Below are positions 26,793 through 33,568 of a stretch of 64,000 bases of DNA, one piece after another (within the stretch, counting starts at the first letter, position 1; every line of letters starts with the position of its first letter). Below the pieces are notes generated by a model. It made no database searches and was not told the origin of the DNA. It saw only the letters and a list, made by a program, of their open reading frames with translations. The stretch spans positions 384,001 through 448,000 of the forward strand of contig CBDESZ010000018.1 in NCBI GenBank assembly GCA_965242725.1, read 5' to 3'. A program made the translations under genes and the position numbers. This stretch comes from Alkalispirochaeta sp. GTDB lineage: Bacteria; Spirochaetota; Spirochaetia; DSM-27196; Alkalispirochaetaceae.

Positions 26793-27010
26793 TTTCCTTC
26801 CTCCTGCAATTCGTGAGTGCTTGATTTCTTCATGGTGACCGCTACAATGTAATAAAACCATCGGGTTTTGTAACCTCTCAAAACCGACAGGGAGCATAAT
26901 TGCTGACTAAAACAACTATACTTTAGTAGATATCCCTTGTTATACTCAGCAAAGGATAATTCTGTATCTATAAAAAGGCTGACAATTTCAGTCGGAAGTC
27001 AGGAGGGCTT

Positions 27011-28054
27011 GTGTTTCAGAAACAGGTTGTCATGCGACGGGTGGTTTTTTCCCTCATTCCCTTGTTTCTGTTTGCGACATTTCTCTACGGTTGGCGGGTG
27101 GTCGTCACCACCGCCCTGGTCTTTGCCCTTGGTATTGGGACGGAATACCTCTTTGAGAGAAGTCGCAAAAAGAAAGTAAGTGAAGCGGTTCTGGTAACAA
27201 GCGCGCTCTATGCGCTCTCATTGCCGCCGGCAACGCCGTTATGGATCGCGGCGATAGGCATCATTTTTGCCGTCGCCGTTGGAAAGGGCGTGTACGGGGG
27301 ATTCGGCCGAAATATCTACAATCCGGCTATTACCGGGCGACTCTTCATATACATTACCTTCCCCACGGTCCTCACCACGGCGTGGATGGTTCCGGCAATG
27401 GTTGATGTCGCCGGCGCCATGGGATTGACCGGCGCGTTCGGTACCTCCGGTCAGGTTGCCGTCGACACCATTACCGCGGCAACACCGCTTGCGGTCATGC
27501 GCTCCGGGGAAATGCCCAACCTGTGGAACCTCTTTCTCGGATTCCGCGGCGGATCGATGGGTGAAAGCAGTACGATCCTGATCATCGCCGCCGCCACCTA
27601 CCTCATGTGGACCAAAACGGCAAACTGGAAGTTCATCACCTCCACATTTACAAGCGCTCTCGTCTTTACAATCGCGTTTTACTTTGCCGACCTGATTCCC
27701 GGCGTATCTCCTTCGTCATATTCAGGGGCGGGACATCTGGTACCCATCGCGGCATACATGATGAGCGGAAGCATTCTCTACGTCGCCGTTTTCATGTCCA
27801 CCGATCCCATTTCCGGACCGAATAATCCAAAGGCCCAATGGGTGTACGGATTCCTCATCGGCGGTGTTTCCATGACCGTCCGCACCTTCAGCGGTTTTCC
27901 CGAGGGAACGAGTTTCGGCATCATGATCGGGAACACTTTCAGTGCCCTTCTTGATGAGCTGCTGCCCAAGAAGAAAAAGAAAAAACAGAAAAAGCAGAAA
28001 GTGGCGGCCGCGCCGCCGGAGACGGCTGATTCCGGTCAGGAGGCGACCGTATGA
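27011..28054 (+). CDS. NqrB/RnfD-family membrane flavoprotein
   Basis: GGFGRNIYNPA, FMN site DTITAATPL, GSMGESS, FMSTDPIS. Confidence 0.9.
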   Translation: MFQKQVVMRRVVFSLIPLFLFATFLYGWRVVVTTALVFALGIGTEYLFERSRKKKVSEAVLVTSALYALSLPPATPLWIAAIGIIFAVAVGKGVYGGFGRNIYNPAITGRLFIYITFPTVLTTAWMVPAMVDVAGAMGLTGAFGTSGQVAVDTITAATPLAVMRSGEMPNLWNLFLGFRGGSMGESSTILIIAAATYLMWTKTANWKFITSTFTSALVFTIAFYFADLIPGVSPSSYSGAGHLVPIAAYMMSGSILYVAVFMSTDPISGPNNPKAQWVYGFLIGGVSMTVRTFSGFPEGTSFGIMIGNTFSALLDELLPKKKKKKQKKQKVAAAPPETADSGQEATV

Positions 28055-28656
28055 ACAAGCAGAGTCTCGTATATACCGTCATATTTACCTTCATCGTTTC
28101 CTTCGTGTTCGTACTTGTATTGTCTTTTGCAAACGAGGGTACCCGGGAACGGGTTGAACTGAACCAGCAACTCAATCGTCAGCGGGCGATCCTCAATGCC
28201 CTCGGCGTCGAGTATTCCGGACCGGATCAGGTACTGAGCCTCTTTGAGGATGTCGAGGAAGTCGAACGGGGAGGTATGACCTTTTACCGCACCGTCGTGG
28301 ACGGCGAGCAGGCGTACGCAAAAGAGTTCAACGGCAGCGGCCTGTGGGGCAATATCAACGGCATTATCGCCGTTGACGGAGAGGTGAACAGGACCCTCGG
28401 ACTGGAGATCATCAGTCATAATGAGACACCCGGCCTGGGAGGGCGTATCGATGAACCCTGGTTCAAGGAACAATTGCGGAATGAGCGCATCGTCGACGGC
28501 ACGATCCGCGTGAGCGGAGCCGGCGAAGGCGACGAGGATCACGACAACGGAGAAATTGACGCCATTACCGGTGCTTCGAGGACGAGTGATGCCATGCAAG
28601 TGATATTCAATAATCAGCTGTCGGACATTTCCGACGCATTGGGAGGTAACTCATGA
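28051..28656 (+). CDS. NqrC/RnfG-family FMN-binding subunit
   Basis: N-terminal TM helix, GSGLWG, HNETPGLGG, DAITGASRTS. Confidence 0.9.
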   Translation: MNKQSLVYTVIFTFIVSFVFVLVLSFANEGTRERVELNQQLNRQRAILNALGVEYSGPDQVLSLFEDVEEVERGGMTFYRTVVDGEQAYAKEFNGSGLWGNINGIIAVDGEVNRTLGLEIISHNETPGLGGRIDEPWFKEQLRNERIVDGTIRVSGAGEGDEDHDNGEIDAITGASRTSDAMQVIFNNQLSDISDALGGNS

Positions 28657-29258
28657 GCACCTCTGGTCAGATACTCAAAGACAATCTCTGGTCGAATAAT
28701 CCGATCTTTATGCAGGTTCTCGGAATATGTTCCGCCCTCGCGGTGACGAATCTGCTTGTAAACACGATGATCATGACCATCGGGGTGACCTTTGTGACGG
28801 CGATGTCGAGCTTCACCGTCTCGATGATCAAGTCGCTCATTCCCCGAAAGGTACGGATGATCGTACAGACCCTGGTCATAGCATTCTACGTAATCATCGT
28901 TGACATTCTCCTCAGGGCGTATCTTCCGGATATCAGTCGTGCCCTTGGACCGTATGTGGGGCTGATCATCACAAACTGCATCATCATGGGCCGGGCGGAG
29001 GCGTTTGCCCAGAGCAATCCGCCCCTCATTTCCATGTGGGACGGTGCGACCAGCGGCTTCGGCTATATGGCGGTACTGCTGACTATCGCATTTTTCCGGG
29101 AGCTCCTCGGCTTTGGAACGCTCTTCGGATACCAGGTATTACCCGACGCATTTGTACCGTGGACGATCATGGTTACCGCACCGAGTGCCTTTTTCTTCCT
29201 CGGCGGTATCATTTGGGCGGGCAAGACGATCATGAATCGTGAAGGAGCGGCAGCATGA
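28653..29258 (+). CDS. NqrD/RnfE-family subunit
   Basis: NNPIFMQVLGICSALAVT, VGLIITNCIIMGRAE, RELLG. Confidence 0.92.
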   Translation: MSTSGQILKDNLWSNNPIFMQVLGICSALAVTNLLVNTMIMTIGVTFVTAMSSFTVSMIKSLIPRKVRMIVQTLVIAFYVIIVDILLRAYLPDISRALGPYVGLIITNCIIMGRAEAFAQSNPPLISMWDGATSGFGYMAVLLTIAFFRELLGFGTLFGYQVLPDAFVPWTIMVTAPSAFFFLGGIIWAGKTIMNREGAAA

Positions 29259-29854
29259 ACGCGGCACCACTGTTAAATCCCTTTTCACTCTTTTTTGCGT
29301 CGATTTTTACGAGCAATATCCTTCTCGCAAACTTCCTCGGCATGTGCTCGTTCATATCCATATCCAAGGATATGACCTCTTCAAACGGACTGGGCATGGC
29401 GGTAACGGTGGTACTCACCATAACCACCGCACTCAACTGGGTTATTCTCAACTACGTGCTCGTCCCGCTGCAGGTGGAATATCTGCGCTTCATCGTATTC
29501 ATCATTTCCATCGCTGCGGTCGTTCAAATGCTTGAAATGATCATTGACCGTGTATCCCAGGCACTCTACATGAGTCTGGGAATCTTTCTGCCCCTCATCA
29601 CGGTTAACTGCGCAATTCTGGGTGTCTCCCTTTTCATGGAGATCCGGAATTACACGTTCCTCCAAAGCGTGATATACGGATTCGGTTCCGGCCTTGGATG
29701 GTGGCTCGCCATTATGGCTCTTTCGGCGATTCGGAAGAAAACCGAGAAGGCGCCGGTTCCCGCAGGACTGAAAGGGCCGGGAATCACCGTCATTACCATT
29801 GGGTTCATGGCAATGGCCTTTATCGGGTTTTCCGGCATGCTCTCGGTTCAATAA
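29255..29854 (+). CDS. NqrE/RnfA-family subunit
   Basis: FLGMCSF, LGIFLPLITVNCAILG, MAMAFIGFSG. Confidence 0.92.
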   Translation: MNAAPLLNPFSLFFASIFTSNILLANFLGMCSFISISKDMTSSNGLGMAVTVVLTITTALNWVILNYVLVPLQVEYLRFIVFIISIAAVVQMLEMIIDRVSQALYMSLGIFLPLITVNCAILGVSLFMEIRNYTFLQSVIYGFGSGLGWWLAIMALSAIRKKTEKAPVPAGLKGPGITVITIGFMAMAFIGFSGMLSVQ

Positions 29855-29866
29855 GGAGTTCTTCAG

Positions 29867-30997
29867 ATGGAATTGGACTTGGTATACTTTATCGCCCCCG
29901 CGGCAGTGGGGGGCATCTCGGCGGGCCTGGCTGCGCTGATTTCGATAACCGACAAGATCGTCAACAACTATGGCGACATAAAAATCGATATTAACAACGG
30001 AAAAAAGGAGCTCGTCGTCAAGGGCGGACAGCCGATGCTCTTCGGACTTGCCGGGGAAGGCATTTTCATACCTTCCGCATGCGGCGGTCGCGGAAGTTGC
30101 GGTACCTGCAAGGTGAAGGTCAAGAGTGACATCGGCCCGGTCATGCCGACCGAGGTTCCATACCTTACCAAGGAAGAGATAGCCGACGACGTCCGACTCT
30201 CCTGTCAGGTCAAACTCAAAGAAGATGTGGATATCGACATTCCTGAGGAGCTTTTCAACGTCCAGGAGTATCAGGCCACCATCGAGAAGATTGAACAGGT
30301 TACCCACGATATTCTGGAGGTGTACTGCAAACTCCCCGAGGGCAAGGAAGTGACATTCACCTCCGGTCAGTACGGACAGTTTGAGGTTCCTCCCTACGAA
30401 AAGGTGAAAGAGAGATCGATGCGTGCCTATTCGATGTCTTCACCGCCGTCGGACAAGAACCACCTTGAGTTCCTGATCCGTCTCGTCCCGGGCGGAATCG
30501 TCACCACCTACGTTCACAACCATCTCCAGGAAGGCGAAAAAATCCGTATTGTCGCTCCCTTCGGCGACTTCTACGTCCGCGAGACCGACGCCCAGATGAT
30601 CTGTGTCGCCGGCGGTTCTGGAATGGCTCCGTTCAAGAGTATTTTTCAGGACATGATCGACAAGGGTACTTTGAATGATCGGGAAATCTGGTACTTCTTT
30701 GGCGCGCGGTCAAAGAGGGATGTTTTTTACCTCGATTGGCTGTACAAGCTGGATGAAGAAAATGAGAATTTTCACTTCATCCCCGCCCTCAGTGAACCCC
30801 AACCGGAGGACAACTGGGACGGTCCGACGGGATTGATCACTGAAATCCTCGATGAATACCTCAAAAATACAATTAATCCGGAGAAAGAGAAGGAAGGATA
30901 TCTCTGCGGCAGCCCCGGGATGCTTGATGCGTGTATGAAGGTCATGTCTGAAAATGAAATGCAGACCGACAAGATATATTTCGACAAGTTTGCGTAA
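29867..30997 (+). CDS. NqrF-like membrane-anchored 2Fe-2S/FAD NADH oxidoreductase
   Basis: N-terminal TM helix, SACGGRGSCGTC...RLSCQ, RAYSMSS, GGSGMAP, FGARS, YLCGSPGM. Confidence 0.9.
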   Translation: MELDLVYFIAPAAVGGISAGLAALISITDKIVNNYGDIKIDINNGKKELVVKGGQPMLFGLAGEGIFIPSACGGRGSCGTCKVKVKSDIGPVMPTEVPYLTKEEIADDVRLSCQVKLKEDVDIDIPEELFNVQEYQATIEKIEQVTHDILEVYCKLPEGKEVTFTSGQYGQFEVPPYEKVKERSMRAYSMSSPPSDKNHLEFLIRLVPGGIVTTYVHNHLQEGEKIRIVAPFGDFYVRETDAQMICVAGGSGMAPFKSIFQDMIDKGTLNDREIWYFFGARSKRDVFYLDWLYKLDEENENFHFIPALSEPQPEDNWDGPTGLITEILDEYLKNTINPEKEKEGYLCGSPGMLDACMKVMSENEMQTDKIYFDKFA

Positions 30998-31012
30998 GGC
31001 AGGTACAAGCGT

Positions 31013-31477
31013 ATGAAAATGTCTCCCGAATACAGAAAGGCGCAGGAAAACATGCAGCCCGGCGTGATAACCGCCAACGGGTTTCTCGGTGACGATACGC
31101 GCAATATCGTCGATATCATTGAGGCGGACGAGGAAGAGTTCTCCCGCCTCGGAATGGATTTCGATGAAGTTGCCGCACAGCTGCGGCATCTCCTCAACGA
31201 GGGACGGAAAGGCCTCGATGAGCCCGTCACGGTGGATGGAAAGTGGATCGTCACGACAACCGAGGCACGGGGTCATCTGGCGTCCCCCTTTGAAGACGGG
31301 ATATTCCGGAAGGTGAACGCGACGATACAACGGGCGACCAATGGAAAAGCGGAGGGGCCTACCCTCCTGGTAAGCGACCTCTCTCTCCACCTGATGGAGA
31401 AGAATCACTTTCTACAGGGAAAAGGGGCGCCCTTCCGATTGGATCCCCACACGATCAAGACGGTGCTCGACCTTTAG
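31013..31477 (+). CDS. Hypothetical protein directly downstream of the nqrF-like gene
   Basis: 154-aa ORF 15 bp after the nqrF-like stop, with protein-like composition. Confidence 0.7.
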   Translation: MKMSPEYRKAQENMQPGVITANGFLGDDTRNIVDIIEADEEEFSRLGMDFDEVAAQLRHLLNEGRKGLDEPVTVDGKWIVTTTEARGHLASPFEDGIFRKVNATIQRATNGKAEGPTLLVSDLSLHLMEKNHFLQGKGAPFRLDPHTIKTVLDL

Positions 31478-31534
31478 AGGGCACCGTCCTTCATTGATCT
31501 TTTCCCCCGCCGTCACTATGCTGTAACAAAGACC

Positions 31535-33568
31535 ATGGCCGACGAACGTGTACTCATCGTTGAGGATGAGAAAATTATAGCATTGGACCTCCAACGCCGG
31601 CTGGAAAAGTTCGGTTATACAGTTGTCCACCTTGCATCAAATGCAGATGAGGCGGTTGCCAGCGCCGAAGAGTATCGCCCCGATATCATTCTCATGGATA
31701 TCATGCTCGGTGGTGAGCGGGACGGCGTCGATGCGGCAATTGAGATCAAGGAACATACAAACACACCTATCGTTTTCCTTACGGCCTACGCGGATGAACA
31801 CACCGTGGAACGGGCGAAGAAGGCGGAACCGGTCGGATATGTTCTCAAACCCTTTAAAGAACGGGAACTGCAGACGACAATCGACATCGCCCTCTACAAG
31901 GCGCGGGTCGATCTCAAAATGCAGGAGCAGGAGCAGCTCTTTGAGGCACTCCTGAACAGCATGAACGACGGACTGGTCGCATTCTCCGCCCAGCGTACGA
32001 TCCGCTTTCTCAATCCCGTTGCCGCCGACCTTACGGGATGGCATCCAGAAGAGGTGATCGGCCGGCAACTGGAAGAGCTCTTCACCCTTTATGACGAAAA
32101 TTCCGAACTCGCCACGGCGATCCCTTTTTCCCTCGTCTTCAGCGGCAAGGATTTCGACTTCGAGAATGTCTACGTACTGACGGAACAGGGTGGTCGCGTA
32201 AGCATTTCAGGGTCAATTACGCCTACACGGACAAAGGACGCCATCGACGGAGGACTGATCACCTTTCGGGACGTGACGGATATCAAGGAAATGTCTGAAA
32301 TCATCGAATACCAGGCAAGCCACGATTCCCTCACGGGGCTGATGAACAGGGAGGAGTTTTTTCTCAGGCTCCTTGAATTTTCAAAGTCGGCCCACATGGA
32401 ACGGCGTACCCACAGCTTCATCTATCTGGATCTTGATCAGTTCAAGATTATTAACGATGTGTGCGGTCATCTGGCGGGAGACGAGTTGCTCCGGCAGGTG
32501 TCGGGTGACATCACCGGCCAGTTATCTTCCGAAAACCACGTTGCCGGCCGGCTCGGAGGCGACGAATTCGGCATACTTCTGGTCGACGCCCCATTGGCCC
32601 ACGGAATGAACGTCGCCCAGAATCTTCTTCGCAATATCAATCGGAAGTTCATCTGGCAGAAAAATGCCTTTCACATAACCGCCAGCGTCGGTCTCGTCCC
32701 GATCACGGGGGCGAATACCGACGGCTACAACATTCTCGCCGCCGCCGATGATGCGGCGTACCTCGCCAAGGAAGGCGGAGGGAACTCGGTAAAGCTCTAC
32801 GAAACGGCGGACTACAAGTTTCTCAAGCGTCGGGGTGAGATGCAGTGGATATCCCGATTGAATCACGCACTTGAAAGCGATCGCTTTGTCCTCTGGGGAC
32901 AGGAGCTCGCCGCCACAAACGGTGCGGAAATCGATCACCTCGAGGTGCTCATCCGTATGGTCGATGAGGAGTCGTCCCTCATCAGCCCTGCCGATTTTAT
33001 CCCCGCGGCGGAGAAATATAACCTCATGCCGGCGGTTGACCGCTGGGTGATCAAGAACGCCGTCAACAGGCTCCTGGAACAGACAGTCAATGGACGGCGT
33101 CCCATATTCAGTATCAACCTCAGCGCCGCGTCCATCGCAGATGAGCGGATGCTGGACTATATTCAGAACATATTTACGACGACAGGTATCGACCCCAGTC
33201 AAATCTGTTTCGAAATAACTGAAACGACGGCAATTTCCAATATGAGCAGGGCAACCTCCTTCATCCGTCGTCTGAAGTCCATGGGTACGACCTTTGCCCT
33301 CGACGATTTCGGCAACGGGTTTTCGTCCTTCGCCTATTTGAAGCACCTTCCTGTAGATTACCTGAAAATCGACGGCTCCTTTGTCCGGAGCATTGCCGAC
33401 GACCCGATCGACTACGCCCTTGTGGAATCGGTAAATAATATCGGCCATGTCATCGGTATCAAGACGGTCGCAGAGTTTGTGAAGGACGAACGCATTCTGG
33501 CGTTGCTTCAGGAAATGGGCGTCGATTACCTGCAAGGGTATCAGATCGCAAAACCCAAGCCCCTTTAG
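31535..33568 (+). CDS. REC-PAS-GGDEF-EAL c-di-GMP signalling protein
   Basis: LIVEDE/LMDIML receiver, HDSLTGL, RLGGDEF, EVLIR, EITET, DDFG, LKID, QGY. Confidence 0.95.
   Translation: MADERVLIVEDEKIIALDLQRRLEKFGYTVVHLASNADEAVASAEEYRPDIILMDIMLGGERDGVDAAIEIKEHTNTPIVFLTAYADEHTVERAKKAEPVGYVLKPFKERELQTTIDIALYKARVDLKMQEQEQLFEALLNSMNDGLVAFSAQRTIRFLNPVAADLTGWHPEEVIGRQLEELFTLYDENSELATAIPFSLVFSGKDFDFENVYVLTEQGGRVSISGSITPTRTKDAIDGGLITFRDVTDIKEMSEIIEYQASHDSLTGLMNREEFFLRLLEFSKSAHMERRTHSFIYLDLDQFKIINDVCGHLAGDELLRQVSGDITGQLSSENHVAGRLGGDEFGILLVDAPLAHGMNVAQNLLRNINRKFIWQKNAFHITASVGLVPITGANTDGYNILAAADDAAYLAKEGGGNSVKLYETADYKFLKRRGEMQWISRLNHALESDRFVLWGQELAATNGAEIDHLEVLIRMVDEESSLISPADFIPAAEKYNLMPAVDRWVIKNAVNRLLEQTVNGRRPIFSINLSAASIADERMLDYIQNIFTTTGIDPSQICFEITETTAISNMSRATSFIRRLKSMGTTFALDDFGNGFSSFAYLKHLPVDYLKIDGSFVRSIADDPIDYALVESVNNIGHVIGIKTVAEFVKDERILALLQEMGVDYLQGYQIAKPKPL

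Follow-up and report, generated by a model that had tools for sequence, protein, structure and literature searches.

Where do the electrons of reduced nicotinamide adenine dinucleotide (NADH) go in a putative Nqr-type ion pump that has no NqrA? Redox-driven ion pumps of this family are known in two forms, Rnf and Nqr, and the question is raised by an operon found in a 64-kb stretch of DNA from Alkalispirochaeta sp. (G000:C18:384001-448000). This stretch, called the window below and supplying all coordinates unless a contig is given, comes from a 4.34-Mb assembly of 34 contigs that is 91.8% complete, to which all statements on the source genome refer. According to the list of open reading frames (ORFs), six plus-strand genes, B-C-D-E-F-X, lie at 27011-31477 and either overlap or are separated by short gaps. 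An earlier interpretation, herein named the sequence-only reading, had described a five-gene operon with intact motifs. The five tightly linked genes nqrB-C-D-E-F are indeed intact at 27011-30997 and their motifs could be located, but a sixth co-oriented gene, X (31013-31477), shares the span and had gone uncounted. It belongs to an NqrA-less module of the Nqr type, widespread and biochemically uncharacterized, in which a sixth protein is constant, and we tentatively connect that protein to soluble acceptors of the rubredoxin type.

X is a constant sixth gene across distant lineages. Of the 80 genome loci retrieved by means of X, all 77 that have upstream sequence show nqrF directly 5' of it, and B-C-D-E-F stand all in order in 56 of the 57 with room for them, the exception being a locus without detectable C. 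A second set of 80 loci was obtained from metagenomes with a distant, cysteine-type subfamily of X, whose members are only 25-42% identical to the X of the window. Here, too, nqrF is directly 5' of X throughout (80/80), and the five genes are in order in 32 of the 33 loci with enough room. None of these 160 loci contains an RnfC/NqrA-like match. Conservation does not otherwise extend to the flanks beyond B and X, where the largest cluster comprises 6 loci. Within the order to which the source organism belongs, a homolog of F is present in 37 of 41 genomes (in all 26 of high quality), and ten out of ten fetched relatives show the arrangement B-(C)-D-E-F-X, with C undetected in one. The nearest public loci belong to Alkalispirochaeta and other Spirochaetales metagenome-assembled genomes, many with names pointing to soda or salt lakes. 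A cultured and annotated example is found in Ilyobacter polytropus (pILYOP01), where RefSeq labels the six genes piecemeal and X as ‘hypothetical protein’. In one single-contig relative (G017; L023/L044), D follows B directly at a distance of about 50 nucleotides (nt) and C is not detectable, which could be either a real loss or an assembly error.

The operon of the window, its motifs, and its immediate borders are as follows (aa, amino acids; FMN, flavin mononucleotide; FAD, flavin adenine dinucleotide).

26898-27010, no strand: AT-rich divergent intergenic region of 113 nt between a PPOX-like gene (minus strand) and the nqrB-like gene
27011-28054, plus strand: B subunit of the NqrB/RnfD family, 347 aa (Pfam PF03116, 250.9 bits)
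27473-27484, plus strand: TAAT, predicted covalent-FMN threonine motif of B, aa 155-158 (by motif location)
28051-28656, plus strand: C subunit, NqrC/RnfG-type FMN_bind, 201 aa, RnfG-sized (family scans and solved-chain alignment)
28567-28578, plus strand: TGAS, predicted flavinylation motif of C, aa 173-176, aligning with SGAT of Vibrio cholerae NqrC
28653-29258, plus strand: D subunit, NqrD-like, 201 aa (NF006777, 243.3 bits, above the cut-off of 235)
28719-28730 and 28971-28979, plus strand: cysteine motifs LGIC (aa 23-26) and TNC (aa 107-109) of D
29255-29854, plus strand: E subunit, NqrE-like, 199 aa (nqrE model TIGR01940, 223 bits, below the cut-off of 247.55)
29336-29347 and 29603-29611, plus strand: cysteine motifs LGMC (aa 28-31) and VNC (aa 117-119) of E
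29867-30997, plus strand: F subunit, NqrF, 376 aa, with an N-terminal membrane helix (TIGR01941, 296.3 bits, cut-off 295)
30080-30109 and 30197-30208, plus strand: 2Fe-2S motifs CGGRGSCGTC (aa 72-81) and LSCQ (aa 111-114) of F
30422-30433 and 30611-30631, plus strand: FAD site RAYS (aa 186-189) and NADH site GGSGMAP (aa 249-255) of F
31013-31477, plus strand: X, soluble and free of cysteine, 154 aa; its start lies 15 nt past the stop of nqrF
31283-31291 and 31406-31426, plus strand: motifs SPF and HFLQGKG of X
31477-31491, plus strand: weak terminator-like hairpin with a T-rich tail, directly 3' of X (consensus match only)

How much of a classical Nqr do these genes make up? The entry side appears complete. 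F contains the Pfam domains Fer2, FAD_binding_6, and NAD_binding_1, and its four cysteines, RAYS, and GGSGMAP align with 8a1t_F; judged by its intact membrane helix and its 2Fe-2S, FAD, and NADH sites, F would take in NADH, as the sequence-only reading had proposed. D and E resemble their Nqr counterparts more than their Rnf ones when aligned to solved chains (for D, 197.5 bits with V. cholerae NqrD and 143.7 with RnfE; for E, 188.6 bits with NqrE and 162.1 with RnfA), while E, with 204.8 bits against the rnfA model (cut-off 229.3), falls between the nqrE and rnfA models. C stays below both the nqrC (85 bits, cut-off 144) and the rnfG (68.6 bits, cut-off 102) cut-offs and reaches 63.6 bits with the solved NqrC and 33.4 bits with RnfG. 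The motifs of B to F pair with matching stretches of the solved V. cholerae subunits. Thus, the flavinylation motifs of B and C and the cysteine pairs of D and E are present, and their cofactors are predicted accordingly.

B is the subunit in which the two families meet. It scores 206.8 bits against the NqrB model NF003756 (cut-off 414), matched from profile position 110 only, 191.2 bits against TIGR01937 (cut-off 349.9), and 198.4 bits against the rnfD model TIGR01946 (cut-off 207), of which nearly the whole is covered. Against solved chains the outcome is a tie (NqrB 121.4 bits, RnfD 119.2 bits). Residues 5-7 of B align with RnfD residues 21-22, and because residue 34 pairs with residue 133 of V. 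cholerae NqrB, about 100 N-terminal residues of NqrB are missing. B is thus N-terminally short, as had been suspected, and has the length of RnfD. Classical NqrB is annotated at 400-412 aa in the operons that we fetched, and the B subunits of related modules mostly measure 296-350 aa. Around TAAT, the pattern D152..T158-P159 is conserved in 31 family members. The C-terminus of B (residues about 319-347, window 27965-28054) consists of a lysine-rich KKKKKKQKKQK and a low-complexity tail that are not conserved in the family alignment. Regarding maturation genes, an ApbE gene is present on contig C16, neither nqrM nor apbE lies 3' of the operon, and NqrM (PF04400) had no match in the source genome, as was equally the case in 14 control genomes.

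Could the missing subunit be encoded elsewhere? Upstream of B, only the 113 nt to the divergent PPOX-like gene are available, leaving no space for nqrA or rnfC, and family scans recognize neither RnfB nor RnfC among the operon genes; on both points the sequence-only reading holds. The genome-wide search that it had called for gave the same picture. With the nqrA model (cut-off 321), the best of three matches in the source genome, all of them on RnfC-like frames, scores 33.4 bits; in five single-contig relatives carrying the module, the best score is 39.3 bits. The rnfC model finds three genes above its cut-off, each of them in its own rnf-type cluster. We conclude from these model searches that the genome holds no orphan A or C subunit, and no N-terminus of the NqrB type appears in the alignment of B, so that neither of the two findings named beforehand as fatal to the sequence-only reading was made.

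The three clusters differ. On contig C6, rnfCDGEAB includes a normal rnfB and is accompanied by an RseC-like gene. The cluster on C25 (C25:105319-110176, L118) is an rnfCDGEA without recognizable rnfB, the next frame being one of 184 aa that matches nothing in Pfam or NCBIfam. The third Rnf-like cluster, at C4:228197-232002 (L120:3198-7003), is very divergent and shows extreme branch lengths in the tree described below; it consists of genes resembling RnfC (498 aa, 264 bits), RnfA (198 aa), and, weakly, RnfD (313 aa), together with a frame of 201 aa whose Rnf-Nqr match is sub-threshold, and is preceded by a 522-aa frame without family. These genes are what a first alternative would draw upon, in which the core borrows RnfC (or RnfB) from elsewhere and acts as an Rnf-like NADH/NAD+ or ferredoxin-linked machine; this is highly improbable, for although three RnfC-like genes exist and the C25 cluster has no recognizable rnfB, every RnfC-like gene is clustered with RnfD- and RnfA-like genes of its own (with G and E as well on C6 and C25, with only weak or partial matches on C4), D and E share no more than 36-44% identity with RnfE and RnfA of the same genome, the related loci never include an RnfC/NqrA-like gene, and NADH entering by F and NAD+ leaving by RnfC would amount to a futile cycle. 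A lone NqrC/RnfG-like FMN-binding gene is also present at C19:21775-22395 (L121:1276-1896), 36.6% identical to C of the operon and outside any Nqr/Rnf cluster.

To which branch of the family, then, does the module belong? D and E are paralogs, and a joint tree of both (66 rows, IQ-TREE, LG+C20+F+G4) allows the two halves to root each other (100/100). Represented in it are A-less modules (14), five classical operons taken from named records (those fetched include Klebsiella, Ruegeria, Neisseria, and Parabacteroides), a type with an iron-sulfur (Fe-S)-bearing A subunit (L030, L032, and relatives), and Rnf rows from the source genome, its relatives, and named records (12 RnfE and 7 RnfA); the sampling of classical Nqr and Rnf is thin. 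In the D half, all NqrF-bearing forms make up one clade (100/99) with every RnfE outside it, and the sister of the A-less group (80/83) is a group made of classical Nqr and the Fe-S-A type (100/96). In the E half, the NqrF-bearing clade (89/84) again leaves every sampled RnfA outside, and here the Fe-S-A type joins the A-less group (94/93) in a clade (88/84) whose sister is classical NqrE (100/98). The placing of the A-less group among the three Nqr-type lineages hence differs between the halves, and the classical NqrD (100/99) and NqrE (100/98) groups, based on the five classical operons sampled, both exclude the A-less D and E.

Going by this tree, the module makes up a separate lineage of the Nqr type, which is not Rnf and does not nest within classical Nqr. 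The sequence-only reading had seen an Rnf/Nqr intermediate and had pointed to subunit phylogenies as a check. As a description of traits this stands, B and C being Rnf-sized and D, E, and F Nqr-like; as a statement on descent it is not supported, D and E lying outside every sampled Rnf and forming their own group within the NqrF-bearing clade. Since NqrA is homologous to RnfC, according to the accessible text of Reyes-Prieto 2014 (PMC4014512), the absence of A would most simply be explained by loss, paired with the gain of X, rather than as a primitive state.

The Fe-S-A type deserves a short description. It is the second operon of G031/G039 (L030:6141-7565 (-), L032), which ends in NqrF and whose A subunit keeps a 4Fe-4S dicluster. 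This A (Fer4_7 plus NQRA_2nd, 474 aa) scores below the nqrA cut-offs. The label ‘canonical Nqr’ that we had given to this operon was dropped on account of the retained 4Fe-4S domain and those scores; it looks like a further Nqr-type lineage between the RnfC-bearing forms and those with a cofactor-less A.

What is X? The protein has no match in Pfam or NCBIfam. Its AlphaFold2 model is of good quality (predicted local distance difference test score 91.2, predicted template modeling score 0.84), and a Foldseek search of that model against the PDB gave a best E value of 0.22, with no match at E <= 0.001. With VIA-align, run over 48,161 chains, the best Z was 2.6 and none reached 5. Based on the model, X is without a match among solved folds and may be a candidate new fold, although fold searches are no proof of this. 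From a library of 1.84 billion proteins, a profile built from 11 spirochaete X proteins retrieves 847 cluster representatives at E <= 0.001, of which 251 reach E <= 1e-10, and those members that carry a name are annotated as ‘hypothetical protein’. Among the Atlas clusters, the nearest ones belong to Thermodesulfobacteriota, Planctomycetota, Fibrobacterota, and Cloacimonadota, and in one of them 13% of the members carry DUF7919. Family motifs are GFLGxDxR, G....[C/S]P[F/W], H..., and F-x-x-G-x-G...R...P. X of the window has D28, G87, P92, F133, and G136, which are invariant among 70 representatives, and departs from the family in having a serine where cysteine is usual and in a shifted histidine position. 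A search for longer, fused forms with a broad family alignment found none among 7,989 candidates, a weak negative since fused forms are known.

The surroundings of the operon can be dealt with shortly. The 113-nt gap has a GC content of 0.44, compared with about 0.55 nearby, and a Shine-Dalgarno-like AGGAGG stands just 5' of the GTG start codon of B at 27011. Three weak promoter-like hexamer pairs near the gap do not rise above shuffles. Upstream, the divergent PPOX-like gene and a pyruvate-dehydrogenase-like operon are the neighbors. Downstream of X lies a response-regulator/GGDEF/EAL gene (31535-33568), which occupies the same place across most of the order and is there followed by aroK and aroC.

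Which molecule would finally take up the electrons? The answer that we tentatively favor, while placing it somewhat short of an even chance, is that BCDEF-X oxidizes NADH, pumps ions, and by means of X serves a soluble acceptor of the rubredoxin type, not the quinone site of NqrA/NqrB. A bolder form of this proposal, possible but in our judgment on the unlikely side, would give the Rnf/Nqr family a third widespread branch in BCDEF-X, which would be an NADH:rubredoxin oxidoreductase that pumps Na+, with X as a docking subunit of new fold that recruits rubredoxin-type acceptors. NADH electrons would enter at the FAD and 2Fe-2S of F, move to the cluster of D/E, the FMN of C, and the FMN and riboflavin of B, and from there reach the cytoplasm, and the complex would pump Na+ (or H+) during NADH oxidation. 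X would dock the acceptor, either on the cytoplasmic face of B that NqrA leaves free or on NqrF. In the source organism, the one rubredoxin (C5) and a flavodiiron-like protein (C27) would complete a defence chain from NADH to O2 that builds an ion gradient, which, if true, would be useful to an alkaliphile. The span from NADH (about -320 mV) to rubredoxin (near 0 mV) is like that from NADH to menaquinone, which drives Nqr in Bacteroidota.

The evidence for such an acceptor comes from the company that X keeps in other lineages. In rare fusions, X is joined to rubredoxin (in P0048 and P0062), to rubrerythrin (P0037), to nitroreductase (P0057), or to a domain of the peroxiredoxin type (P0102). 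Sequence of 400 nt or more follows X in 65 metagenome loci; of these, the gene directly 3' of X encodes rubredoxin in 7 and rubrerythrin in 3, and among the 39 downstream ORFs that were scanned, 2 that follow X are Fur-family genes. Several of these loci are close kin, which lowers the number of independent events. X accompanies NqrF and rubredoxin even without the membrane core. At L149 (2066-9107), in what is an operon for oxygen defence, the gene order is peroxiredoxin, flavodiiron/ODP-like, ferritin, rubrerythrin, soluble NqrF, X, rubredoxin, G6PD, and Rex; this NqrF has 337 aa and no membrane helix, and no B-E genes occur within about 5 kb upstream. Its F and X are 72% and 76% identical to their counterparts in L135, a locus of the membrane type with the order BCDEF-X-rubredoxin-G6PD.

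Several observations weigh against extending this proposal to the window. No rubredoxin, rubrerythrin, nitroreductase, or peroxiredoxin match occurs within the 64 kb, and rubrerythrin and superoxide reductase were not found in the source genome, where the single rubredoxin is encoded on a different contig, next to genes for a flavoprotein and a TPR protein, and a flavodiiron/ODP-like gene is present. Serine replaces cysteine in the X clade of the window: cysteine is found in 58 of the 70 representatives, serine in 74 of the 80 Spirochaetales loci. All ten loci with rubredoxin or rubrerythrin directly after X are of the cysteine type, and the rubredoxin link may therefore not extend to the clade of the window. 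No redox gene directly follows X in 53 of the 65 metagenome loci mentioned above. The soluble F-X-rubredoxin unit of L149 cuts both ways, since in the absence of B-E it implies that X can work without B; electrons could leave NqrF directly, bypassing the pump, and the picture of X as a plug on B is weakened. Taken together, the non-canonical acceptor of the sequence-only reading is plausible on the strength of the context in other lineages, not of the source genome itself.

A rubredoxin gene is also found within 8 kb in 36 of the 80 Spirochaetales loci, and this was rejected as independent support. It reflects inherited synteny, in which X is followed by GGDEF-EAL, aroK, and aroC and then by a convergent rubredoxin gene about 4 kb away; moreover, in the 13 loci nearest to the window (L035-L047) the rubredoxin on the side of aroC is absent.

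The most serious competitor is that the complex is a quinone reductase still, in which the riboflavin of B reduces membrane (demethyl)menaquinone bound within B and X replaces NqrA only structurally; we consider this unlikely but well worth keeping in view. Its strength lies partly in descent, D and E belonging to the NqrF-bearing clade next to classical Nqr, and partly in the 2025 RNF/NQR review, whose accessible text describes NqrA as free of cofactors, with electrons going directly to ubiquinone within the membrane. The source genome, too, contains two MenA-like prenyltransferases, which likewise count against a rubredoxin-type acceptor. One of them (304 aa) shares a minus-strand operon at C18:37353-40272 (L223:5353-8272) with an NDH-2-like flavoprotein (418 aa) and a YceI-like protein (238 aa), and owing to this operon a prenylquinone pool is possible. 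On the other hand, MenB did not exceed its cut-off (116 bits, cut-off 342.7), and neither MqnA/D nor cytochrome bd was found in the same genome. The look at quinone biosynthesis suggested by the sequence-only reading was thus divided in its outcome, and we rejected the claim of a quinone-free genome: ring-synthesis markers were not found, yet MenA-like genes are present. Further points that speak against a quinone are the missing N-terminal part of NqrB (about 100 residues), the association of X with soluble rubredoxin-type proteins and with a soluble NqrF without membrane core, and genome papers that, as far as their accessible text goes, report the A-less layout in anaerobes and likewise leave the acceptor open.

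A further alternative, which we regard as live but slightly less likely still, takes X off the electron path altogether. X would then be a maturation or regulatory factor of NqrF, concerned with cofactor loading or redox sensing, and the electrons would leave elsewhere, e.g., outward via the extracytosolic FMN of C. This agrees with the constant position of X beside nqrF, including the soluble NqrF without B-E, and with the X of the window's clade having neither a cysteine nor a recognizable cofactor motif. The second NqrC-like FMN-binding gene on C19 would fit as well, as would other systems in which flavinylated Nqr/Rnf-like parts serve extracytosolic electron transfer (Méheust 2021, in its accessible text). 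However, fusions of X to rubredoxin and rubrerythrin suit docking better than maturation, B, the riboflavin-side half, is fully conserved, suggesting that the return path to the cytoplasm is used, and no conserved gene for an extracytosolic acceptor adjoins the module.

Coming back to the NADH:rubredoxin pump, its consequences would be considerable. If it exists, anaerobes would gain membrane energy from the very electrons that remove oxygen and peroxide, and a third widespread form would change models of NADH turnover, ion gradients, and oxygen tolerance in many anaerobes of digesters, sediments, and soda lakes. For the published puzzle of the acceptor of A-less complexes, a handle is now available in the form of a constant sixth protein whose fusions and neighbors point to rubredoxin-type partners. 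Cultured hosts in which we saw X are Ilyobacter polytropus DSM 2926 (ILYOP_RS10220 to RS10195 on pILYOP01) and Alkalispirochaeta alkalica DSM 8900 (L045), and the cluster of Pseudothermotoga lettingae (Tlet_0865-0869) is known from print by its layout.

How does the module compare with known systems? With classical Na+-NQR (V. cholerae, 7xk3, 8a1t) it shares the NqrF input, the cysteine pairs of D and E, the flavinylation motifs of B and C, and the B-C-D-E-F arrangement of genes; scores of D and F are high enough for NCBIfam equivalogs, and D and E belong to the same NqrF-bearing clade. It differs in having no NqrA and a constant extra gene X, in the lengths of B (347 aa versus 400-412) and C (201 aa versus 257-270), and in B, C, and E remaining below equivalog cut-offs, and nqrM/apbE follow some of the fetched classical operons but not the operon of the window. 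A mixed form was also seen on plasmid pOM-1 of Nitratireductor sp. OM-1 (L218), where an otherwise classical nqrA-F with apbE and nqrM has a B annotated as a 258-aa protein of the RnfD type.

The likeness to Rnf (RnfCDGEAB, including the clusters on C6 and C25) lies in the homologous four-subunit membrane core and in the RnfD-like and RnfG-like lengths of B and C, respectively. Unlike Rnf, the operon contains neither RnfC nor RnfB, NqrF stands in the place of RnfB, and D and E lie outside the sampled Rnf. With the Fe-S-A type it has in common the NqrF, the short B and C, and a clade comprising A-less and classical forms, whereas that operon includes the 474-aa A (NQRA_2nd plus Fer4) and no X.

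The NQR/RNF-like systems of Méheust 2021 (eLife) are similar, to judge from the accessible text, in being partial Nqr/Rnf systems tied to flavinylation. They are described there as fusions of an RnfD-like membrane domain with a C-terminal NAD-binding domain (PF00175), whereas B of the window has PF03116 only, PF00175 is found in the separate F, and D and E are present. The same text counts any NqrF-bearing flavinylation cluster as NQR.

Closest of all are the A-less clusters already in print. As far as the accessible texts go, nqrBCDEF without nqrA has been reported, with the other reactant stated as unknown, in Pseudothermotoga (Thermotoga) thermarum and lettingae (PMC4148951) and in Clostridium ultunense (PMC5924567), and NqrBCDEF is listed for Ca. 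Izimaplasma ZiA1 (PMC6256511). The accessible parts of the 2014 evolution paper (PMC4014512) and of the 2025 RNF/NQR review make no mention of the A-less form, and a search that left subscription journals largely aside found no literature on a characterized A-less complex, X, DUF7919, or a link between NqrF and rubredoxin. Going by the papers' own descriptions, the published clusters have the same five-gene layout and pose the same puzzle of NADH's partner; in the texts at hand, those accounts come without a sixth gene, distribution, phylogeny, or rubredoxin link, and the window represents a haloalkaliphilic spirochaete lineage. The A-less layout as such is thus already in print, and what is added here is the constant X, its distribution, the phylogeny of D and E, and the rubredoxin-type context.

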